Source of the DNA: a virus
Lineage: Duplodnaviria > Heunggongvirae > Uroviricota > Caudoviricetes
Length of the DNA: 34,509 nt
Reading direction: 5' to 3' (one strand)
Virus record (IMG/VR): IMGVR_UViG_2541047783_000002
Shown: piece after piece, positions 2,475-26,300 of the stretch
How positions within the stretch are numbered: position 1 is the first letter of the stretch
How the letters are laid out: every line of letters starts with the position of its first letter
Made by a program: the position numbers and the translations under genes
Notes under the pieces: generated by a model
Databases searched by the model: none
What the model saw: only the letters and a program-made list of their open reading frames with translations
What the model was told of the DNA's origin: nothing

Positions 2475-3071
2475 TCAGTGGGAGTGGTGGCTGGAGTTTT
2501 CGCCATCAGACAACATACTGCCCGTGGCATGGGCATTCCCTTTAATCTCGATATTGCCATGGATGGTCGCGGTAACACCTTCACCACCAGAACCCGCCAT
2601 GCCTCCTTCGTAAATCAGCTTACCCCTGACACGCAGATCTCCGGTAAGTTCGGTTTCCGGTGCGTCAATCGTGGCTTTCTGTGTTTTCAATACCACATCA
2701 GCACCACACTCAATGACAATATGCTCAATGCCGCCCCGGATGATCAGAGTGTGCGTCTTCCGGTTATAGCTGTATTCTGCACCATCAGCAAACCGGGTTC
2801 CCCGGATATTTTTGTCACTGAACGGTGGTTTATCGACGTCTGAATACACCGCGCCCAGAATAACACCATCCTCGCCGTTGGCATCGAGCAGTACCTCAAC
2901 CTGCTCCCCCACGTCAGGGAGCCAGTAATCTTTGTTATCCTGGGTATTGCGCTGCAGCACGTTAAGCCAGTTTGTGCGCAGGTTATCGCATTCAGGCAGA
3001 CGAACGCGGGCCTGAACCCTGTCGGCATCAACGGCACTGACCGTACCGACCTGACGAGTGACACCAGTCAT
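2475..3071 (-). CDS. baseplate assembly protein V (central spike)
   Basis: 198 aa; pattern WLPDVGEQVEVL...GAVYSD resembles P2 gpV N-terminal OB-fold region; position after D-like gene. Confidence 0.7.
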   Translation of the reverse strand: MTGVTRQVGTVSAVDADRVQARVRLPECDNLRTNWLNVLQRNTQDNKDYWLPDVGEQVEVLLDANGEDGVILGAVYSDVDKPPFSDKNIRGTRFADGAEYSYNRKTHTLIIRGGIEHIVIECGADVVLKTQKATIDAPETELTGDLRVRGKLIYEGGMAGSGGEGVTATIHGNIEIKGNAHATGSMLSDGENSSHHSH

Positions 3072-20783: not shown

Positions 20784-21501
20784 AACTGCTGCCTCCCCAT
20801 GTGAGATATCGCGGTGCCAGTTCGCGCAGGATGCGCTGCGGATAATGGCGGTTCTCCCGCCAGCTGGCCGCATTGCGTCCGGCATTCACCGTGGCGACAT
20901 GTCCGAACCAGCGGGTGCTGTCCAGACCTTTCTGTGATGCAAGCCGCCTGTCCCGTTGTACCCAGCCCAGACCACCGTTATAGCCCGACAGTGTCATGGC
21001 CATACGCTCGCAGTCACTGGCGGCGCTGACGCGCTGCCACAGCCAGCGGTCATAGCTGACCAGCGCCCGGATGGCCCATGCCGGATTAAACGGCTCACGG
21101 CTGTTAAGCCCCGGCATCAGCTGACTTATCCAGTCAGCAGTGGCGGGCATGAACTGCGCCAGTCCCTGAGCGCCAGCCGGCGAGACCGCATCAGGTCGCC
21201 AGCCGCTTTCCTGATGCAGTTGCGCGGCGAAATCGGCCACCGGCGCAGACAGTCCCCATTCAAGCCGGGCATTACGGATCACATCATCGCGATACTGCAG
21301 CGCAGCCTGCGGAGGTTGTGCTGCGCATGCCTGGCTGAAAAAGCCGCCACACCAGAGCAGCCAGACAATCACCAGGTTGCCAGCAAGCTGCCACCAGAAG
21401 CTGTATTTATCGTTACGTGGTTCGCCGTGTCTGATGGCGGTTACGCCCAGACCAAAGGCGAACAGAATAATGAGGGTGATTTGAGGCCAGTTCATGGTCA
21501 C
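20677..21501 (-). CDS. endolysin, lytic transglycosylase (SLT domain) with predicted N-terminal membrane segments
   Basis: Motif LHQESGWRPDAVSPAGAQGLAQFMPATA matches SLT catalytic region (ES...GLMQ...T); N-terminal hydrophobic stretches ITLIILFAFGLGVTAI and LAGNLVIVWLLWCGGFF. Confidence 0.75.
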   Translation of the reverse strand: MTMNWPQITLIILFAFGLGVTAIRHGEPRNDKYSFWWQLAGNLVIVWLLWCGGFFSQACAAQPPQAALQYRDDVIRNARLEWGLSAPVADFAAQLHQESGWRPDAVSPAGAQGLAQFMPATADWISQLMPGLNSREPFNPAWAIRALVSYDRWLWQRVSAASDCERMAMTLSGYNGGLGWVQRDRRLASQKGLDSTRWFGHVATVNAGRNAASWRENRHYPQRILRELAPRYLTWGGSSCVASGEKAAVARHSAGHSYQCLSGRPVCHGIQKWS

Positions 21502-21848
21502 AGTCCTGTTGCCACAGCCAGACAGACCGCTGCAACAATCAGTGCACGGCGGATTAACGCAGCAGAAAATACAAGGTGAAGGCCGGTCTGCACAGGGAAA
21601 CGCCCTTCAGCCATCAGCCTGTCGTCATGTTTCAGGTACTGACCGGGACGGGCTTTGGGGAAGAGCGAACGGTCAAGCCAGTAACCCAGCACTGCTGCCA
21701 GTGTGATGAGTGCCAGCTTGTAGATCACAACAGGTAACTGCTGTGGTGAGACCAGAGCGATGGTGCCCAGCAACAGCACTGAGGTCAGCAGCCAGCCGCT
21801 GAGGCGAGGTTTTTTAACAGGGGGAATGAATTTTTTCAGGTTTTTCAT
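21498..21848 (-). CDS. putative holin / small membrane protein
   Basis: Three predicted hydrophobic helices; start at ATG 21848 preceded by AAGGAGA SD; first gene of lysis cassette. Confidence 0.5.
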   Translation of the reverse strand: MKNLKKFIPPVKKPRLSGWLLTSVLLLGTIALVSPQQLPVVIYKLALITLAAVLGYWLDRSLFPKARPGQYLKHDDRLMAEGRFPVQTGLHLVFSAALIRRALIVAAVCLAVATGL

Positions 21849-21978
21849 GTGTGTCTCCTTGTCTGGTGGAGACAGCATCACAAATACAGGGCGCGAAGGA
21901 TTTTAAAGCGCGTTAAGAGAGCCGGGGATACGGGATGTGCAGGATAAACGATGAATTATTCACAGAGGAGAATGCAAC

Positions 21979-22722
21979 ATGACACATACACTGAATCCGG
22001 TCATCACTGTCACCGTGTCCGGTCCTGTGGGCAGCGGTAAAAGTTACGTACTGGCGCGGATAGAGGAAGTGGTGAAACAGGAACTCGGAAACAGCGTCAT
22101 TGTCGATGCCGCAGACGTGGACGGTGAGCGCCGTATGAGTGGCGATGATCTGACGACCTGGCAGAAGCCACGGGCTGGCACAGTGATCAGGCTGGAGGAA
22201 TACACGGGACAGGGCCTGTTGTCATACGGCGAGGAGCGTATCTGTCGGACGAATGAGCTACTGGATGTTATATGCCCCACGGGCCGGCAACCCTGGATAC
22301 TGCCCGATGCACTGCATGCCACCATTGCGGCACTGATGACAGTTTACGATCAGGAGCTGCTCATGAAGGAGTTACGTAAACTCACCGGTCAGCCAACAGA
22401 ATGTTGTTCGTCCCCGAAGTACGGGAAACAGGAACACATCCCGGTAAACACAATCCCCGTTAACCAGCCTCCCCGGTTCTTCGACGAATACATTCTGACA
22501 CCGGAAAATAAAGCTGAGCATGAAGAGATCAAAGCGGCGTTGTTCCGGGAAATCAGGAAGATTGCTGAAATGCAGCTGGGGGGCGGGCTGGACAGAGTGA
22601 TGGCGAGAGGAGAATGGGCATCGCTGTTTGAAAGAGTTTCCCCGGAATTACTTCCCCTCGCACTGGCTATCGGGATTATGCAGACAGCAGATAAACCTCA
22701 CTTACGTTCATTAAACACGTAA
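21979..22722 (+). CDS. hypothetical protein with N-terminal Walker A P-loop (GPVGSGKS)
   Basis: 247 aa; GAGGAG SD upstream of ATG; P-loop motif near residue 15-22; remainder unrecognised. Confidence 0.5.
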   Translation: MTHTLNPVITVTVSGPVGSGKSYVLARIEEVVKQELGNSVIVDAADVDGERRMSGDDLTTWQKPRAGTVIRLEEYTGQGLLSYGEERICRTNELLDVICPTGRQPWILPDALHATIAALMTVYDQELLMKELRKLTGQPTECCSSPKYGKQEHIPVNTIPVNQPPRFFDEYILTPENKAEHEEIKAALFREIRKIAEMQLGGGLDRVMARGEWASLFERVSPELLPLALAIGIMQTADKPHLRSLNT

Positions 22723-23102
22723 CGCATAATCCGGGATACGCATTCAGCGATGACTGCATTTTCGCCGGTTTTTACTGCATCCAGAAGCAACTCTTTAAAT
22801 GGTACGGGCCGGGGCTGCAGAAAGGTCGGCATGGCATTGAGCAGACAGAGCGTTTTTTCCGTGAGGACGACATCAGCCGCTCCCACAGCCAGCAACTGAG
22901 AGTAACGAATATAGCTGTTATCCCGAAGCCATATCAGCGTATCAATAAAATACCGGCACTTTTTCTGGTCGTGATCAACCTGGTCCGGGATATCGAAAAA
23001 ACCAGAATAAATCAAAACCTGAGGTGCCGGATGCGTGTTCAGTAATCGGCAGAATATTTTGCCGGTGAGTACATAAAAATCATCATTTAAGGAGTGCATC
23101 AT
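22698..23102 (-). CDS. hypothetical protein (134 aa)
   Basis: ORF convergent with 21979..22722 (25-bp 3' overlap); start codon overlaps start of 23101..23316 on opposite strand; no recognisable family. Confidence 0.4.
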   Translation of the reverse strand: MMHSLNDDFYVLTGKIFCRLLNTHPAPQVLIYSGFFDIPDQVDHDQKKCRYFIDTLIWLRDNSYIRYSQLLAVGAADVVLTEKTLCLLNAMPTFLQPRPVPFKELLLDAVKTGENAVIAECVSRIMRYVFNERK

Positions 23103-23316
23103 GAATCCCCGATTAACGTTAACAGAACATCAGCGCCGTGCCGAAGCAGTGAACAATGTTCTGGAAGATATTATCCGGTTACATCGCGGAGAACTGAGTA
23201 TCTGTCGTGCCACTGTTCATTTTCAGGAAATACAAAAGCAGTTCGATACTTCTGTTTTTGCAGAAGGGATCACTTATGCCCTGGACCAGATAAAGGCAGA
23301 CAATCACCCCGGATAA
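23101..23316 (+). CDS. hypothetical protein (71 aa)
   Basis: ATG preceded by AAGGAG at correct spacing. Confidence 0.45.
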   Translation: MNPRLTLTEHQRRAEAVNNVLEDIIRLHRGELSICRATVHFQEIQKQFDTSVFAEGITYALDQIKADNHPG

Positions 23317-23448
23317 TCCCTAAACCACATTAACAGAAATCCCACTATCCCTGCCGCATCATGAAAGAACGACCAGCCCGGTGCTTCGGACCCACCGGAC
23401 TGGCCATCGTCCCACAGAAGTGGCTGTGAGCCGACCGAGGTTCAGTCA

Positions 23449-23460
23449 GTCTCGCGAGAC
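23449..23460. promoter_or_regulatory. perfect 12-bp palindrome GTCTCGCGAGAC upstream of methyltransferase gene
   Basis: Self-complementary dodecamer about 50 bp upstream of the 23508 start, in a 190-bp noncoding gap. Confidence 0.3.
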
Positions 23461-23507
23461 CAGACTAGCCTGCCATATTTTTAATAATTGTAAAAGGCTT
23501 ACAGATT

Positions 23508-24272
23508 ATGAAAATGCAGACATTACCCATCGTTCCATGGATTGGTGGCAAACGCCGCCTTGCAAAACACATTCTGCCGCTGTTTCCGGCGCATGAATGT
23601 TATGTGGAGCCGTTCTGTGGGGCAGCAGCGCTCTATTTTCTTAAGACACCCGGCAAGATCGAAGTCATTAATGATATCAACGGTGAACTGGTGAATCTGT
23701 ACCGGGTGGTAAAGCATCACCTGGAAGAATTTGTCCGCCAGTTCAAATGGGCGCTGGTCAGCCGTCAGATCTACAAATGGCTGCAGATCACCCCGGAAGA
23801 AACACTGACGGATATCCAGCGTGCGGCACGGTTCTACTACCTTCAGAAGCAGGCGTTTGGCGGCAAGGTGGCAGAGCACAGCTTCGGTACCTCCACCACA
23901 TCCCCGCCACGCTTCAACCTGCTGCGTATTGAAGAAGAACTGTCAGCAGCACACCTGCGGCTTTCCAGAACAGTCATAGAACACATGGACTGGCAACAGT
24001 GCATTGAGCGTTATGATCGTCCGCACACGCTGTTCTACTGCGACCCACCGTACCTGGGTACGGAAGGCTATGGTGTGGATTTTCCTGAAGAGAACTACAC
24101 ACTACTCGCAGAACTGGCCCGGTGCATCAGAGGAAAGATGATTATCTCGGTGAACGACATTCCGCAGATGCGTCGGGTGTTCACTGAACTGAACATACAG
24201 ACGGTGAATATCAACTACAGTCTGGCGGGTAAACCCACGCCGCGCCGTGAACTGGTAATCTGCAACTTCTGA
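23508..24272 (+). CDS. DNA N6-adenine methyltransferase (Dam/D12 class), orphan
   Basis: N-terminal SAM-binding motif VEPFCGAAAL and catalytic DPPY motif (FYCDPPYLG); no adjacent restriction endonuclease gene. Confidence 0.85.
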   Translation: MKMQTLPIVPWIGGKRRLAKHILPLFPAHECYVEPFCGAAALYFLKTPGKIEVINDINGELVNLYRVVKHHLEEFVRQFKWALVSRQIYKWLQITPEETLTDIQRAARFYYLQKQAFGGKVAEHSFGTSTTSPPRFNLLRIEEELSAAHLRLSRTVIEHMDWQQCIERYDRPHTLFYCDPPYLGTEGYGVDFPEENYTLLAELARCIRGKMIISVNDIPQMRRVFTELNIQTVNINYSLAGKPTPRRELVICNF

Positions 24273-24303
24273 AACAAAACCGGAAAGCACAATGCTTTCC
24301 GGT
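24271..24303 (-). terminator. intrinsic terminator downstream of repressor gene (possibly bidirectional)
   Basis: Perfect 11-bp stem ACCGGAAAGCA/TGCTTTCCGGT with 3-nt loop (24279-24303); on minus strand followed by UUUUGUUUC. Confidence 0.6.
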
Positions 24304-24388
24304 AAATCAGCCCATTCCTGCCATGCTACTGACGGCGCTTTCTGAAAGCGTCCAGATCAACCACCTGTCCTTTGTGTCCGGGTCAGAA

Positions 24389-24766
24389 TCAGCCTGTAAA
24401 TTTACTTGGTTTGGGTTGAGTATAGAATCGCCCAACCTCAAGAAATGAGCGTCGTTGTTCCGGAGTCATTTCATCAAATGCGTCCATTAATTTTTGTTTT
24501 TCTGGTGACATTTTTGGGACAACATTGGTCATTACATCCCCTCTCTGTCCTGTAACAACGTAAAGCACGTCAAGCCCTAAAGTAGCCCAAATTGCCAAAG
24601 CATCTGCTCCGGGAGCGGATTCATCCTTTTCCCACCGCAATTGGCTTTTATAGGATGCCCCCACCAATTCAGCAAACTCAGACTGACTAAATCCTAGGCG
24701 GTTTCTTTCTTCTTTTAATCGTGAGCCAAGTGACATTTTTGTCCAATACCTATTTACATATCCCAT
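24389..24766 (-). CDS. XRE-family HTH repressor (c repressor analogue)
   Basis: HTH_XRE-like segment LGFSQSEFAELVGASYKSQLRWEKDE; divergent from early operon; true start may be ATG 24736 (MSLGSRL...) rather than 24766. Confidence 0.7.
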   Translation of the reverse strand: MGYVNRYWTKMSLGSRLKEERNRLGFSQSEFAELVGASYKSQLRWEKDESAPGADALAIWATLGLDVLYVVTGQRGDVMTNVVPKMSPEKQKLMDAFDEMTPEQRRSFLEVGRFYTQPKPSKFTG

Positions 24767-24776
24767 TTTTGGGATA
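24759..24776. promoter_or_regulatory. candidate operator: inverted repeat TATCCCA-N4-TGGGATA in divergent repressor/early promoter region
   Basis: 7-bp arms, 4-bp T spacer, located between repressor start and early operon start. Confidence 0.35.
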
Positions 24777-24828
24777 ATAATCTAACATATATAGAGCAAA
24801 CATCATTGCGTTAATAAAGGAGGCAACA

Positions 24829-25017
24829 ATGACTGCAGAGCAGGTCAAAGCCCATTTCCGCCGCAACGGAATCACCTTTACCCAGTGGGCAAAACAGAAC
24901 AACTACACCCGAGCAGAGGTTTACCGCGTACTGAATGGACAGGTAAAAGCGAACTATGGCAAAGCCCATGAAATCGCCGTCAAGCTGGGATTAAAAACCA
25001 TCACTGACGCCGCTTAA
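24829..25017 (+). CDS. Ner/Cro-like small DNA-binding protein (first early gene)
   Basis: 62 aa, strong SD AAAGGAGG; HTH-like segment TQWAKQNNYTRAEVYRVLNG; position equivalent to Mu ner. Confidence 0.5.
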   Translation: MTAEQVKAHFRRNGITFTQWAKQNNYTRAEVYRVLNGQVKANYGKAHEIAVKLGLKTITDAA

Positions 25018-25069
25018 AAAGATACAGCATGCGAAAAAGATTATCACATATTGAAAAAGAGGTATGCAG

Positions 25070-25378
25070 ATGAGTAAGACGAATGTTTCAAGCTCCGGCA
25101 GTCGCATCCTCCGGGTACTCAAAGCGCTGCGCGGTCATGCCCTGAACGGTATTTCCAACGGTGAACTGGCAGCAGCACTGCACGAGTCACCGGCAAACAT
25201 CAACCGGGCACTCAACACCCTCATTGAAGAAGGGCTGGCCCTGAAACTGGAGAATGGACGTTTTGCTCCTGGCATCCAGTTACTGCAGATCGCCATGGCT
25301 CACAGTAACGAGATGGCACGAGCGCAGGATCGTATTAACGAAATCAACCAACGTGTCATTTCAGGTAGTCGTTTGTAA
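25070..25378 (+). CDS. putative winged-helix DNA-binding protein
   Basis: HTH-like segment ISNGELAAALHESPANINRALNTLIEEGLA; start set at second ATG (25070) which has AAGAGG SD at proper spacing. Confidence 0.45.
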   Translation: MSKTNVSSSGSRILRVLKALRGHALNGISNGELAAALHESPANINRALNTLIEEGLALKLENGRFAPGIQLLQIAMAHSNEMARAQDRINEINQRVISGSRL

Positions 25379-25388
25379 GGAGTAATCA

Positions 25389-26300
25389 ATGGGACGCACC
25401 AAATCACCGGTTAGCACTGAACTGAACGCCGAGATACCGCTGTCTGATGATCTCAACGTCAGCCTGAATGCCATGACACAGCATCGTATGGAGATCATGC
25501 AGCAGTTCGGCGACGGCCTGCCCTATGAACGTAATCGCATCGTTCACGAAACTCGGTTTTATATGGACCAGAGTGCGGAGGCTATGCTGGAGGCAGGTAA
25601 ACGTTTGGTTATCCTGAAGGAAAATGAACCTCATGGAGAATACGTACAAATCGTCAAAGAACAGTTGAACCTTGAGCCACGCATAGCCCAAAAAATGGCC
25701 CAAGCTGCTCTGAAGTTTTTATCTCCAGAGCTGACATCAAAAGCGAAAACGTTTTCGCATTTGGGAAGATCAAAACTGTACGAATTGATGTTAGAGGATG
25801 ATGAAGACCTTGCCGAACTGGCCGACGGTGGCACAGTTGCCGGACTGACGCTTGACGACGTTGATCGCATGTCAGTACGTGAATTGCGTCAGTCTCTTCG
25901 CGAAGCCCGCGAAACCAACGCAGCACAACAGCGCGTGCTGGCCGACAAAAATGAAAAAATAGACTCACTCTCCACCAGACTGGAGAAGAAATCCCGTATT
26001 CAGCCGCCTGAGCCTGACGAAGAGGTGAAGAAACTGCGGGCGGAAGTGACAGCGTTAGCGGTTGAGGCGGAATCAGCTATCGCCGTCCGACTGTCCAGCG
26101 CTTTTGAGACGCTGTGTGCATATTGTGCTGAAAACATGATTGATACCCCCAGAGACTTCATGGCAGGCCTGGTCTGTCAACTGGAAAGCACAGCGCGTAG
26201 CCTGCGCTCCACATTTGACCTGCCGGACGAGCCAACAGGCGATGTCGCGCCTTCATGGCTGACTGAGCCGACGCCACAGATTAACGGGCTGGAGGCATAA
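25389..26300 (+). CDS. hypothetical protein (303 aa, predicted coiled-coil) upstream of transposase
   Basis: AAGGAG SD; charged helical central region; conserved position in early operon. Confidence 0.5.
   Translation: MGRTKSPVSTELNAEIPLSDDLNVSLNAMTQHRMEIMQQFGDGLPYERNRIVHETRFYMDQSAEAMLEAGKRLVILKENEPHGEYVQIVKEQLNLEPRIAQKMAQAALKFLSPELTSKAKTFSHLGRSKLYELMLEDDEDLAELADGGTVAGLTLDDVDRMSVRELRQSLREARETNAAQQRVLADKNEKIDSLSTRLEKKSRIQPPEPDEEVKKLRAEVTALAVEAESAIAVRLSSAFETLCAYCAENMIDTPRDFMAGLVCQLESTARSLRSTFDLPDEPTGDVAPSWLTEPTPQINGLEA

Follow-up and report, generated by a model that had tools for sequence, protein, structure and literature searches.

Several short, stable and terminator-ended RNAs, namely sar of phage P22, OOP of phage lambda and RNA-OUT of IS10, have promoters that face out of or against the gene they control; they are RNAs of one or two hairpins which overlap the ribosome-binding site of their target, and the promoter of RNA-OUT overlaps the 5' end of the transposase gene. 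Another closely comparable system is the com-mom module of phage Mu. When Mu lacks its C protein, RNA polymerase is recruited to the divergent and overlapping promoter momP2, which competes with the weak promoter Pmom (PMC3378877). The Dam-related enzymes Hia5, Hin1523 and Nma1821, encoded behind com in Mu-like prophages, are sequence non-specific (Drozdz et al. 2012, PMC3299994). Here we analyse a 34,509-nt stretch of DNA (IMG/VR record IMGVR_UViG_2541047783_000002, Caudoviricetes; the whole stretch is referred to as the window), which is a BcepMu-like transposable prophage of Escherichia coli (E. coli), with emphasis on an orphan DNA methyltransferase gene (dam, hereafter the methylase gene) and on a 12-bp palindrome upstream of it. 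Judging from the sequence, the palindrome appears to belong to an unannotated structured RNA element of about 100 nt that is read away from the methylase gene. The joint reading that we favour, and consider probable on balance, is that an orphan phage methylase and a head-to-head RNA gene of about 100 nt form a portable cassette in which the RNA gene gates expression of the enzyme.

This locus resembles com-mom of Mu in several respects: in related loci the late and potentially toxic modification gene is located behind a gene for a Com zinc-ribbon protein (PF10122), a Mor/C-family activator is encoded in the same phage, the predicted outward promoter would overlap the 5' end of the operon, and one related locus has a Mom homologue behind the RNA element and com. 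However, Mu has no detectable copy of the RNA and is not known to make a structured leftward transcript, whereas the window has neither com nor a GATC/OxyR cluster, its enzyme is a methyltransferase and not Mom, and its gene lies in the middle of the genome between the lysis cassette and the immunity region rather than at the right end. Compared with sar, OOP and RNA-OUT, the RNA of the window differs in that it is predicted to form a three-way junction and not to overlap the ribosome-binding site, and in that the element precedes non-homologous genes. Hia5, Hin1523 and Nma1821 share with the enzyme family of the window the relation to Dam, the DPPY motif, a divergent target-recognition region, a place behind com at the position of mom and a presumed anti-restriction role, but they belong to another subfamily than the B3-type Dam, since the ORF48-type Dam of phage B3 falls outside the 1000 closest relatives of Hia5 and was treated as a different subfamily (PMC3299994). 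The enzyme is of a known kind, and the RNA and its cassette appear to be an undescribed variant of Mu-type anti-restriction gene control. The features of the locus are as follows, those of the minus strand being given in the direction of the predicted RNA.

23508 to 24272, plus strand: orphan D12-class N6-adenine DNA methyltransferase gene, 254 aa, ATG start, intact open reading frame (ORF).
23494 to 23497, plus strand: Shine-Dalgarno-like AAGG of the methylase gene, inside AAAAGGCTTACAG; where relatives have retained com, this sequence serves as its ribosome-binding region.
23494 to 23489, minus strand: -35-like hexamer TTTACA, separated by a 16-nt spacer from the predicted -10 element and overlapping the ribosome-binding region of the methylase gene.
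23475 to 23467, minus strand: predicted extended -10 element, TGG CAGGCT, with the family signature G-14, T-12, A-11 and T-7.
23460 to 23362, minus strand: predicted structured non-coding RNA of about 98 nt, which would begin with a hairpin, continue into a three-way junction and finish in a U-rich 3' end; both ends are predicted.
23460 to 23449, minus strand: palindrome GTCTCGCGAGAC, helix P3, predicted 5'-terminal hairpin with stem GUCU/AGAC and loop CGCG, covering +1 to +12 of the predicted RNA promoter.
23443 to 23440 (GAAC) with 23370 to 23367 (GUUC), minus strand: helix P0, which closes the three-way junction (helix 3; 96.7% of cells paired, double changes in 6/6 pairs).
23435 to 23433 with 23408 to 23406, minus strand: helix P2a, which encloses P2; P2a and P2 both show covariation (helices 4 and 5).
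23430 to 23424 (CUCACAG) with 23417 to 23411 (CUGUGGG), minus strand: helix P2, in which the U-G pair 23429/23412 would be C-A on the plus strand.
23405 to 23393 with 23383 to 23371, minus strand: helix P1, a long G+C-rich hairpin of 12-13 bp (helices 6 and 7), which together with the U-run makes a terminator-like 3' end.
23369 to 23362, minus strand: U-rich tail UUCUUUCA after P1/P0, exactly where homology with distant prophages begins.

The initial annotation had reported a perfect 12-bp palindrome about 50 bp upstream of the gene, and this is correct: GTCTCGCGAGAC occurs as a single copy in the window (23449-23460), with 47 bp from its last base to the ATG. The coordinate 23449, given there as the start of the feature, is that of the palindrome and not of the gene. 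Perfect 12-bp palindromes are not enriched in the window (6 found versus 9.5 +/- 3.2 expected from dinucleotide-preserving shuffles). The palindrome alone is thus not beyond chance, and it can gain significance only from conservation of its position with changing sequence in related loci. Such conservation was observed: a perfect or near-perfect palindrome of 8-16 bp is present at this position in most loci, and other lineages carry CCTACCGGTAGG, GCGTCGACGC, CCGTAGCTACGG, CCTGCGCGCAGG and more, so that palindromy is kept while the sequence varies.

Comparison of related loci extends this conservation to the whole element. When the window was aligned with phage PhiKM and the prophages KP12 and Phi06_2974B, homology was found to begin abruptly at 23362 and to continue to the ATG, with compensatory changes in the first hairpin. 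We then considered 80 loci with relatives of the methylase of 62-87% identity from Enterobacterales, Burkholderiales, Neisseriales, Nitrosomonadales, Methylococcales, Pseudomonas, Methylophaga and others, most of which have a recognisable block of about 150 bp immediately upstream of the methylase gene. A covariance model, R1, was built from the minus-strand MAFFT alignment with the RNAalifold structure; it scores 80.9 bits (E=4e-18) in the window at 23357-23474 on the minus strand. Using nhmmer and R1, the element was identified upstream of dam and on the opposite strand in 79 genome loci, and 71 of the 80 viral contigs retrieved through Dam also carry it, always on the opposite strand and immediately upstream. 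In all, about 150 loci, from phages of Beta-, Gamma- and a few Alphaproteobacteria, have the element immediately in front of a methylase gene of this family. Cultured phages outside the seed are matched by R1 as well, namely Burkholderia phage vB_PR1 (82.9 bits), Pseudomonas phage Bise (69.9 bits) and Stenotrophomonas phage phiSHP3 (62.4 bits). No further copy of the element was detected in the 773 kb of Dam-retrieved viral contigs, nor a second copy in the approximately 2.5 Mb searched overall, and a scan of BcepMu, which has no modification gene, found none. The element contains small ORFs, of 22 codons on the plus and 20 codons on the minus strand; they are not conserved, and substitutions follow RNA pairing. 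In Bise (L089), a reverse-transcriptase family gene (1561-2592) lies directly upstream of the element (2638-2756, minus strand) and the dam module, near the end of the genome.

The element does not correspond to any family of Rfam. In a search of Rfam 15 no family reached E<=1 in the region 21800-25200 and none exceeded its gathering score, and the other loci gave noise only. The best sub-threshold match was Rhizobiales-2 (RF01723), a weak full-length match at 23371-23462 (minus strand; 20.1 bits versus a gathering score of 40, E=1.6), whose borders nearly coincide with those of the element and which is similarly laid out, with one hairpin at the 5' end, one in the middle and a G+C-rich one at the 3' end. 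However, this likeness could not be substantiated: the match was not reproduced in eight other loci, and a search with 15-mers based on Rhizobiales-2 yielded 62 chance matches, none of which is located beside Dam or convincingly matched by R1. Literature searches found no functional data on Rhizobiales-2, no description of an RNA at the present position, and nothing relevant on antisense or small RNAs at prophage dam genes.

Both the fold and its strand can be read from the alignments. RNAalifold on the plain minus-strand MAFFT alignment gave a consensus structure of -37.0 kcal/mol in which 24 of 28 pairs show compensatory double changes. Several pairs are mainly G-U on the minus strand (e.g., GU27/GC23, UG30/CG14/UA11, UG38, and GU26/AU13/GC10), and the plus-strand prediction contains three helices with many C-A cells. 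In the R1-fitted alignment of 72 re-aligned hits, 92.1% of cells are paired compared with 71.1 +/- 0.5 after shuffling (reached in 0 of 500 cases) and 36-52% in slid controls, double changes are found in 33 of 34 pairs, and the covariation score is 0.628 versus 0.234 in the control; this alignment is biased towards the structure of the model itself, but the plain MAFFT result agrees. For the 28 core pairs, the minus strand was counted to have 262 G-U cells versus 33 A-C cells (95.3% versus 83.7% paired), and because G-U far outnumbers A-C in the core helices, the functional RNA strand is the one opposite the methylase gene. A consensus scan independently flagged a terminator-like site at 23392-23375 (minus strand) plus tail, and U-rich tails are found across the family, so that a G+C-rich hairpin is followed by a U-run on the RNA strand as in intrinsic terminators. 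An alternative helix (UAGGCUU:GAGCCUU), which would form an attenuator-like chain, was rejected; no compensatory change is seen where the Burkholderia hexamer is TAGAAT. As a separate observation, the segment between the -10 element and the palindrome (23461-23474) resembles the 3' end of the RNA (23362-23372), with equivalents in loci L008, L059 and L084; in L008, for example, CTTTTCC is present at both ends of the element. The two resembling stretches are both complementary to the 5' strand of P0. This resemblance could reflect a longer alternative transcript or a flanking repeat.

A promoter for such an RNA is predicted directly upstream of the palindrome. Among 67 distinct loci, the signature of the extended -10 element is kept at G-14 in 55, at T-12 in 57, at A-11 in 66 and at T-7 in all 67, the hairpin begins at +1 to +5, and the -35 region of the family is T-rich at -35 to -33 with C at -30 and A at -29. 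The predicted start of the RNA, at about 23460, would coincide with the first base of the palindrome; in most loci the perfect palindrome starts 7-12 nt past the last base of the -10 element, as expected of a 5'-terminal hairpin. On the plus strand, TATTTT (23476-23481) and the mirror hexamer TAGCCT (23466-23471) were considered as promoter candidates and rejected, both being weakly conserved.

The element is not tied to dam alone. In non-seed loci matched by R1 the order is element, Com homologue (PF10122, E down to 2e-20) and dam, and L070, L034 and L068 are among the relatives that keep com. The idea that com might replace the element was rejected, as R1 finds the element upstream of com in those loci. 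The window lacks com, and here 33 nt separate the end of the element from the ATG of the methylase gene. Because AAAAGGYTTRCAG is the ribosome-binding region of com in relatives and that of dam here, com must have been lost from the E. coli lineage. A retrieval by motif pattern, independent of dam, yielded 118 viral loci; 98 of them have a Dam hit, and in all but one of these (97) dam is divergent from the element within 600 nt. Confirmed elements at the remaining loci adjoin a dam pseudogene, com plus PF01555 methylases (L341 and L323), or, in one case, a tail-fibre-like gene. When loci were instead anchored on com, 29 of 80 were found to have the element, which precedes com by about 22 nt. 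The genes that follow com encode Dam-like enzymes (23), a Mom homologue (PF25680, E=2e-19), C5-cytosine methylases (PF00145, E=2e-52) and an ATPase-GNAT fusion. The last is a 377-aa protein (L427, 2795-3928) in which an ABC/AAA-type ATPase is fused to a GNAT domain with a Mom-like HHYL motif, and is a candidate for a novel DNA-modification enzyme. We regard the element as a control cassette that is portable between phages and may be likened to momP2, the divergent promoter of Mu.

The following model could account for these observations. The methylase would act against restriction, like mom of Mu, by modifying the phage DNA at a late stage of lytic growth, and would be nearly silent in the lysogen. 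The RNA would start at about 23460 from an extended -10 sigma-70 promoter, fold into a hairpin plus a three-way junction and end near 23362, and the RNA gene, its promoter and the ribosome-binding region would together make up the cassette, usually with the translational activator gene com. The modification operon would have an inward promoter, and the outward RNA promoter would compete with it or occlude it in the way that momP2 acts on Pmom; polymerase at the outward promoter and polymerase entering the operon would exclude each other. Any transcript that enters the operon from upstream would be fully complementary to the stable RNA, which may pair with it. A potentially toxic enzyme would thus be held off until a late activator of the Mor/C type redirects RNA polymerase. 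As the fold is conserved, the RNA itself should matter, and it could serve as an antisense element, a stability element or a binding platform. Our confidence is high for the enzyme class and for the conservation, structure and strand of the element, moderate for the element being an independent transcript, and low to moderate for the repressive mechanism.

Several observations weigh against this model. With regard to the promoter, the E. coli hexamer CAGGCT matches TATAAT at only 2 of 6 positions; its G/C-rich middle is unusually conserved for a -10 element; and the invariant A-11 and T-7 would equally fit A2 and T6 of a plus-strand hexamer (AAGCCT), so that only T-12 and G-14 favour the minus strand. 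In some loci, palindrome complementarity below the core extends upstream of the predicted +1, which fits a longer transcript better. No conserved -10 or -35 of a plus-strand sigma-70 promoter for dam was located, and competition or antisense action is therefore proposed without a mapped partner. RNAduplex gave no indication that the RNA pairs with the translation-initiation region (-43.1 for cognate versus -42.4 for shuffled pairs), although the method is too permissive to decide the matter. The scan of phage Mu found no detectable copy, and 51 of the 80 com loci lack the element, which is thus not obligatory. The G-U bias within P3 is weak (45 versus 22), and the palindrome could therefore act as DNA. 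Finally, the existence of the RNA, its transcription start and its 3' end are inferred from sequence.

A related proposal gives the RNA a more active part. It might be the third component of an RNA-Com-enzyme anti-restriction cassette, in which the conserved three-way junction binds a protein or a small molecule, or acts in trans, and thereby times expression of the toxic enzyme encoded behind it, whether Dam-like, N6/N4, C5-cytosine or Mom-like. The RNA would then be more than a by-product of a decoy promoter and would found a new class among the regulatory RNAs of phages. We advance this only tentatively, as possible but on the whole doubtful.

The palindrome could also be a DNA operator for a dimeric regulator (a Mor/C activator, the prophage repressor or another protein) that controls dam, as the initial annotation had supposed in calling it a possible regulator-binding site. 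Its constant position and lineage-specific sequence are what a co-evolving regulator would yield, it covers +1 to +12 of the RNA promoter as predicted and, if a plus-strand promoter were nearby, would fall within its spacer or -35 region, the G-U bias of P3 taken by itself is modest, and Mor and helix-turn-helix (HTH) regulators are encoded in the window. However, the palindrome is contiguous and always accompanied by P0, P1 and P2, which covary as RNA and cannot be protein-binding palindromes; positions of P3 that are asymmetric are still G-U-biased on the minus strand; palindromes of this length are expected by chance; and the late-promoter motif found upstream of the holin gene (see below) is not repeated near dam. 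A sequence-specific operator is not supported in the form proposed, given that the sequence varies by lineage and is embedded in a larger covarying structure of the opposite strand, and we consider it unlikely as the explanation of the element. The palindrome may still bind a protein at the DNA level, as it overlaps +1 of the predicted RNA promoter, and roles as operator and as RNA hairpin are not mutually exclusive.

It is more improbable that the element works on the plus strand, where it would form a structured leader at the 5' end of the mRNA of dam or com-dam and act as a riboswitch or a protein-controlled translational switch. The element abuts the start codon at every locus, both strands fold better than shuffles (z=-3.5 for the plus strand), AAGCC/GGCTT complementarity could mask the Shine-Dalgarno sequence, and Com opens mRNA structure around the start of mom in phage Mu. 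Nevertheless, many helix positions are C-A on the plus strand in most sequences, as the cell counts given above indicate, the U-run follows the hairpin on the minus strand only, the T-12/G-14 signature is on the minus strand, and no riboswitch of Rfam was matched. More improbable still is a leader and terminator of a minus-strand late operon, like pR'-6S-tR' of lambda, to which dam would be adjacent only incidentally. In BcepMu-like prophages of Photorhabdus, Xenorhabdus and Brenneria the element is indeed located directly upstream of, and co-oriented with, the late-promoter motif and holin gene, and in those of Photorhabdus and Xenorhabdus the 3' end of the RNA abuts the late-promoter motif upstream of holin, but this arrangement is lineage-specific. 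In P2-like and Mu-like phages the lysis or tail genes downstream on that strand are convergent, in the window three unrelated ORFs separate the element from holin, BcepMu without a modification gene lacks the element, and the element travels with com and modification genes while the gene context changes. That the palindrome is a chance feature of a functionless intergenic spacer, as its expected frequency would permit, is scarcely credible for a block conserved with compensatory changes from Enterobacterales, Burkholderiales and Neisseriales to Nitrosomonadales, Methylococcales, Pseudomonas and others.

As for the enzyme, the initial annotation of an adenine methyltransferase of the D12 class with a DPPY motif is borne out by a match to PF02086 (MethyltransfD12; E=8.5e-29, 101.5 bits versus a cut-off of 22, residues 11-234) and by motif IV, YCDPPYLG, whose DPPY is readable within FYCDPPYLGTEG. 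From the translation and the alignment with DpnM and EcoDam, motif X (WIGGKRRL) and motif I (EPFCGAAALYF, the last Gly being Ala) precede motif IV in the order of the alpha class. PHROG 56 (E=2.5e-99) and PADLOC MTase_II (E=1e-111) match too, the RefSeq label is 'DNA adenine methylase' (WP_000783853.1), and the closest solved structures are DpnM (2dpm, E=5e-17) and EcoDam (2g1p, E=5e-14). No endonuclease adjoins the gene, as had been stated: the neighbouring ORFs 21979-22722 (plus), 22698-23102 (minus) and 23101-23316 (plus) have no nuclease or defence domain in searches of Pfam, NCBIfam, PHROGs and PADLOC. Related prophages that retain the methylase carry other genes in their place, and the only constant partners of the methylase across loci are the RNA element and, in some, com. 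Anti-restriction or self-protection, also proposed in the initial annotation, is the natural reading. In relatives the methylase fills the slot behind the Com homologue much as mom does in Mu, and this slot can also be taken by other DNA-modification enzymes. In PhiKM (L002, 3913-4767) the GenBank start of the methylase is 90 nt upstream of the conserved ATG and runs through the RNA element, which is probably a mis-call.

The term Dam-class should not be taken to imply specificity for GATC. The protein is of the same fold family as EcoDam, DpnM and T4 Dam and has the same motif order, but it falls just below the cut-off of TIGR00571 (114.6 bits versus 114.85) and far below that of the EcoDam equivalog NF008152 (67.3 versus 441). 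In a gap-free HMMER alignment to 2g1p, residues K9, N120, L122, R124 and P134 of EcoDam, which are the GATC base contacts in the EcoDam-DNA structure, correspond to P, G, K, A and S. The methylase is 62% identical to the protein of Pseudomonas phage Bise and resembles the B3-type Dam. In four relatives without the RNA body, L006 (3900-4000), L042, L055 and L064 (3850-4000), 3-4 GATC sites are clustered just upstream of the methylase gene, and L006 retains just the promoter-proximal 42 bp of the element; this is a hint that suggests another, methylation-sensitive control and perhaps GATC specificity in that branch. GATC is scarce across the window (97 sites versus 136 +/- 10 in dinucleotide-preserving shuffles), in agreement with the GATC depletion reported for EC958 prophages (PMC4659465).

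Between the late and early arms of the prophage are three ORFs with no assigned function, the methylase gene and a repressor-like HTH gene. The main features of the surroundings are as follows.

Leftwards from holin (21498-21881), minus strand: late genes.
24389 to 24766, minus strand: repressor-like HTH gene of the immunity region, assigned by profile matches and convergent with the methylase gene.
From 24829, plus strand: early genes, encoding Ner-like, IclR-type HTH, DUF3102, DDE transposase (26304-28073), AAA+ B-like, Gam, GemA and Mor proteins.
32479 to 32865, plus strand: Mor/C-family late transcription activator gene (PF08765, E=5e-41).

The Mor/C-family protein is a candidate switch for the late genes, and perhaps for dam too. 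Upstream of the holin gene, TTAACGCGCTTTAAAATCC (21898-21916, minus strand) is followed about 34 nt further upstream by ATCCTG (around 21950), and TTAACGCGCTTTAAAATCC with the upstream motif CCATYCTG is conserved in nine BcepMu-like prophages; this site is probably a Mor-dependent late promoter with TAAAAT as its -10. It is the sole copy in the window, with no second one near dam. The three ORFs at 21979-23316 encode proteins of 247 aa with the P-loop GPVGSGKS (PHROG 3787), 134 aa (PHROG 2266) and 71 aa (PHROG 4490), and because they are absent from KP12-type and Photorhabdus-type relatives, they are regarded as moron-like insertions. Between the convergent methylase and repressor genes, a hairpin at 24279-24303 with an 11-bp stem (ACCGGAAAGCA...TGCTTTCCGGT) has a U-run on the minus strand only and is probably the terminator of the repressor gene. 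The longest perfect palindrome of the window is a 16-bp one, GCGAAAACGTTTTCGC (25743-25758), within the DUF3102 gene. The prophage apparently ends soon after mor (32865), and the DNA from about 32900 to 34509, including an ORF at 33214-33858 without a Pfam match, is probably host or other sequence.

The 1.1-kb methylase region is present in 556 of 5,426 complete E. coli genomes (~10%). Escherichia phage PhiKM (Bcepmuvirus) has it too, and prophage records of Klebsiella and Escherichia match it with 82% identity; protein relatives of ~86% identity are spread across Enterobacterales. EC958 (NZ_HG941718.1), a strain of ST131, has the same prophage, in which the stretch for the predicted RNA is at 1,031,637-1,031,752 (minus strand) and the methylase gene at 1,031,787-1,032,551; this gene is almost certainly M.EcoMIV of prophage Phi2 (Forde et al. 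2015). M.EcoMIV is a D12 enzyme whose mid-log transcription was significantly below that of dam, to which no motif could be assigned and which has no characterised homologue of more than 65% identity (PMC4659465); similarly, a Salmonella lysogen of a BcepMu-like prophage showed no extra methylation motif (PMC3868858). The low transcript level in the lysogen fits the outward promoter proposed here. It had been suggested at first that a lack of a new motif in lysogens would speak against the anti-restriction or regulatory role of the gene. This observation does not discriminate, as the example of M.EcoMIV shows, with its low transcription in the lysogen and no new motif there; it is expected of a late, tightly controlled phage function.

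Orphan methyltransferases of prophages are common, are usually silent in methylomes, and their control is rarely understood. The present prophage occurs in about a tenth of complete E. coli genomes, among them those of the pandemic clone ST131, and the predicted head-to-head RNA gene and its promoter offer a concrete and testable reason for the silence of its methylase. In phages of the Mu-like, BcepMu-like and P2-like types from many Proteobacteria, no fewer than four unrelated DNA-modification enzymes are encoded behind this cassette. Should the RNA be confirmed, the lack of a new motif in a lysogen should not be equated with a dead enzyme, and the element would be a new RNA family for the catalogues. 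The cassette would also become a marker for new DNA-modification genes of phages, any gene behind it being a candidate, and the mom paradigm of Mu, in which a toxic anti-restriction function is silenced at several layers, would extend to a wide group of phages.

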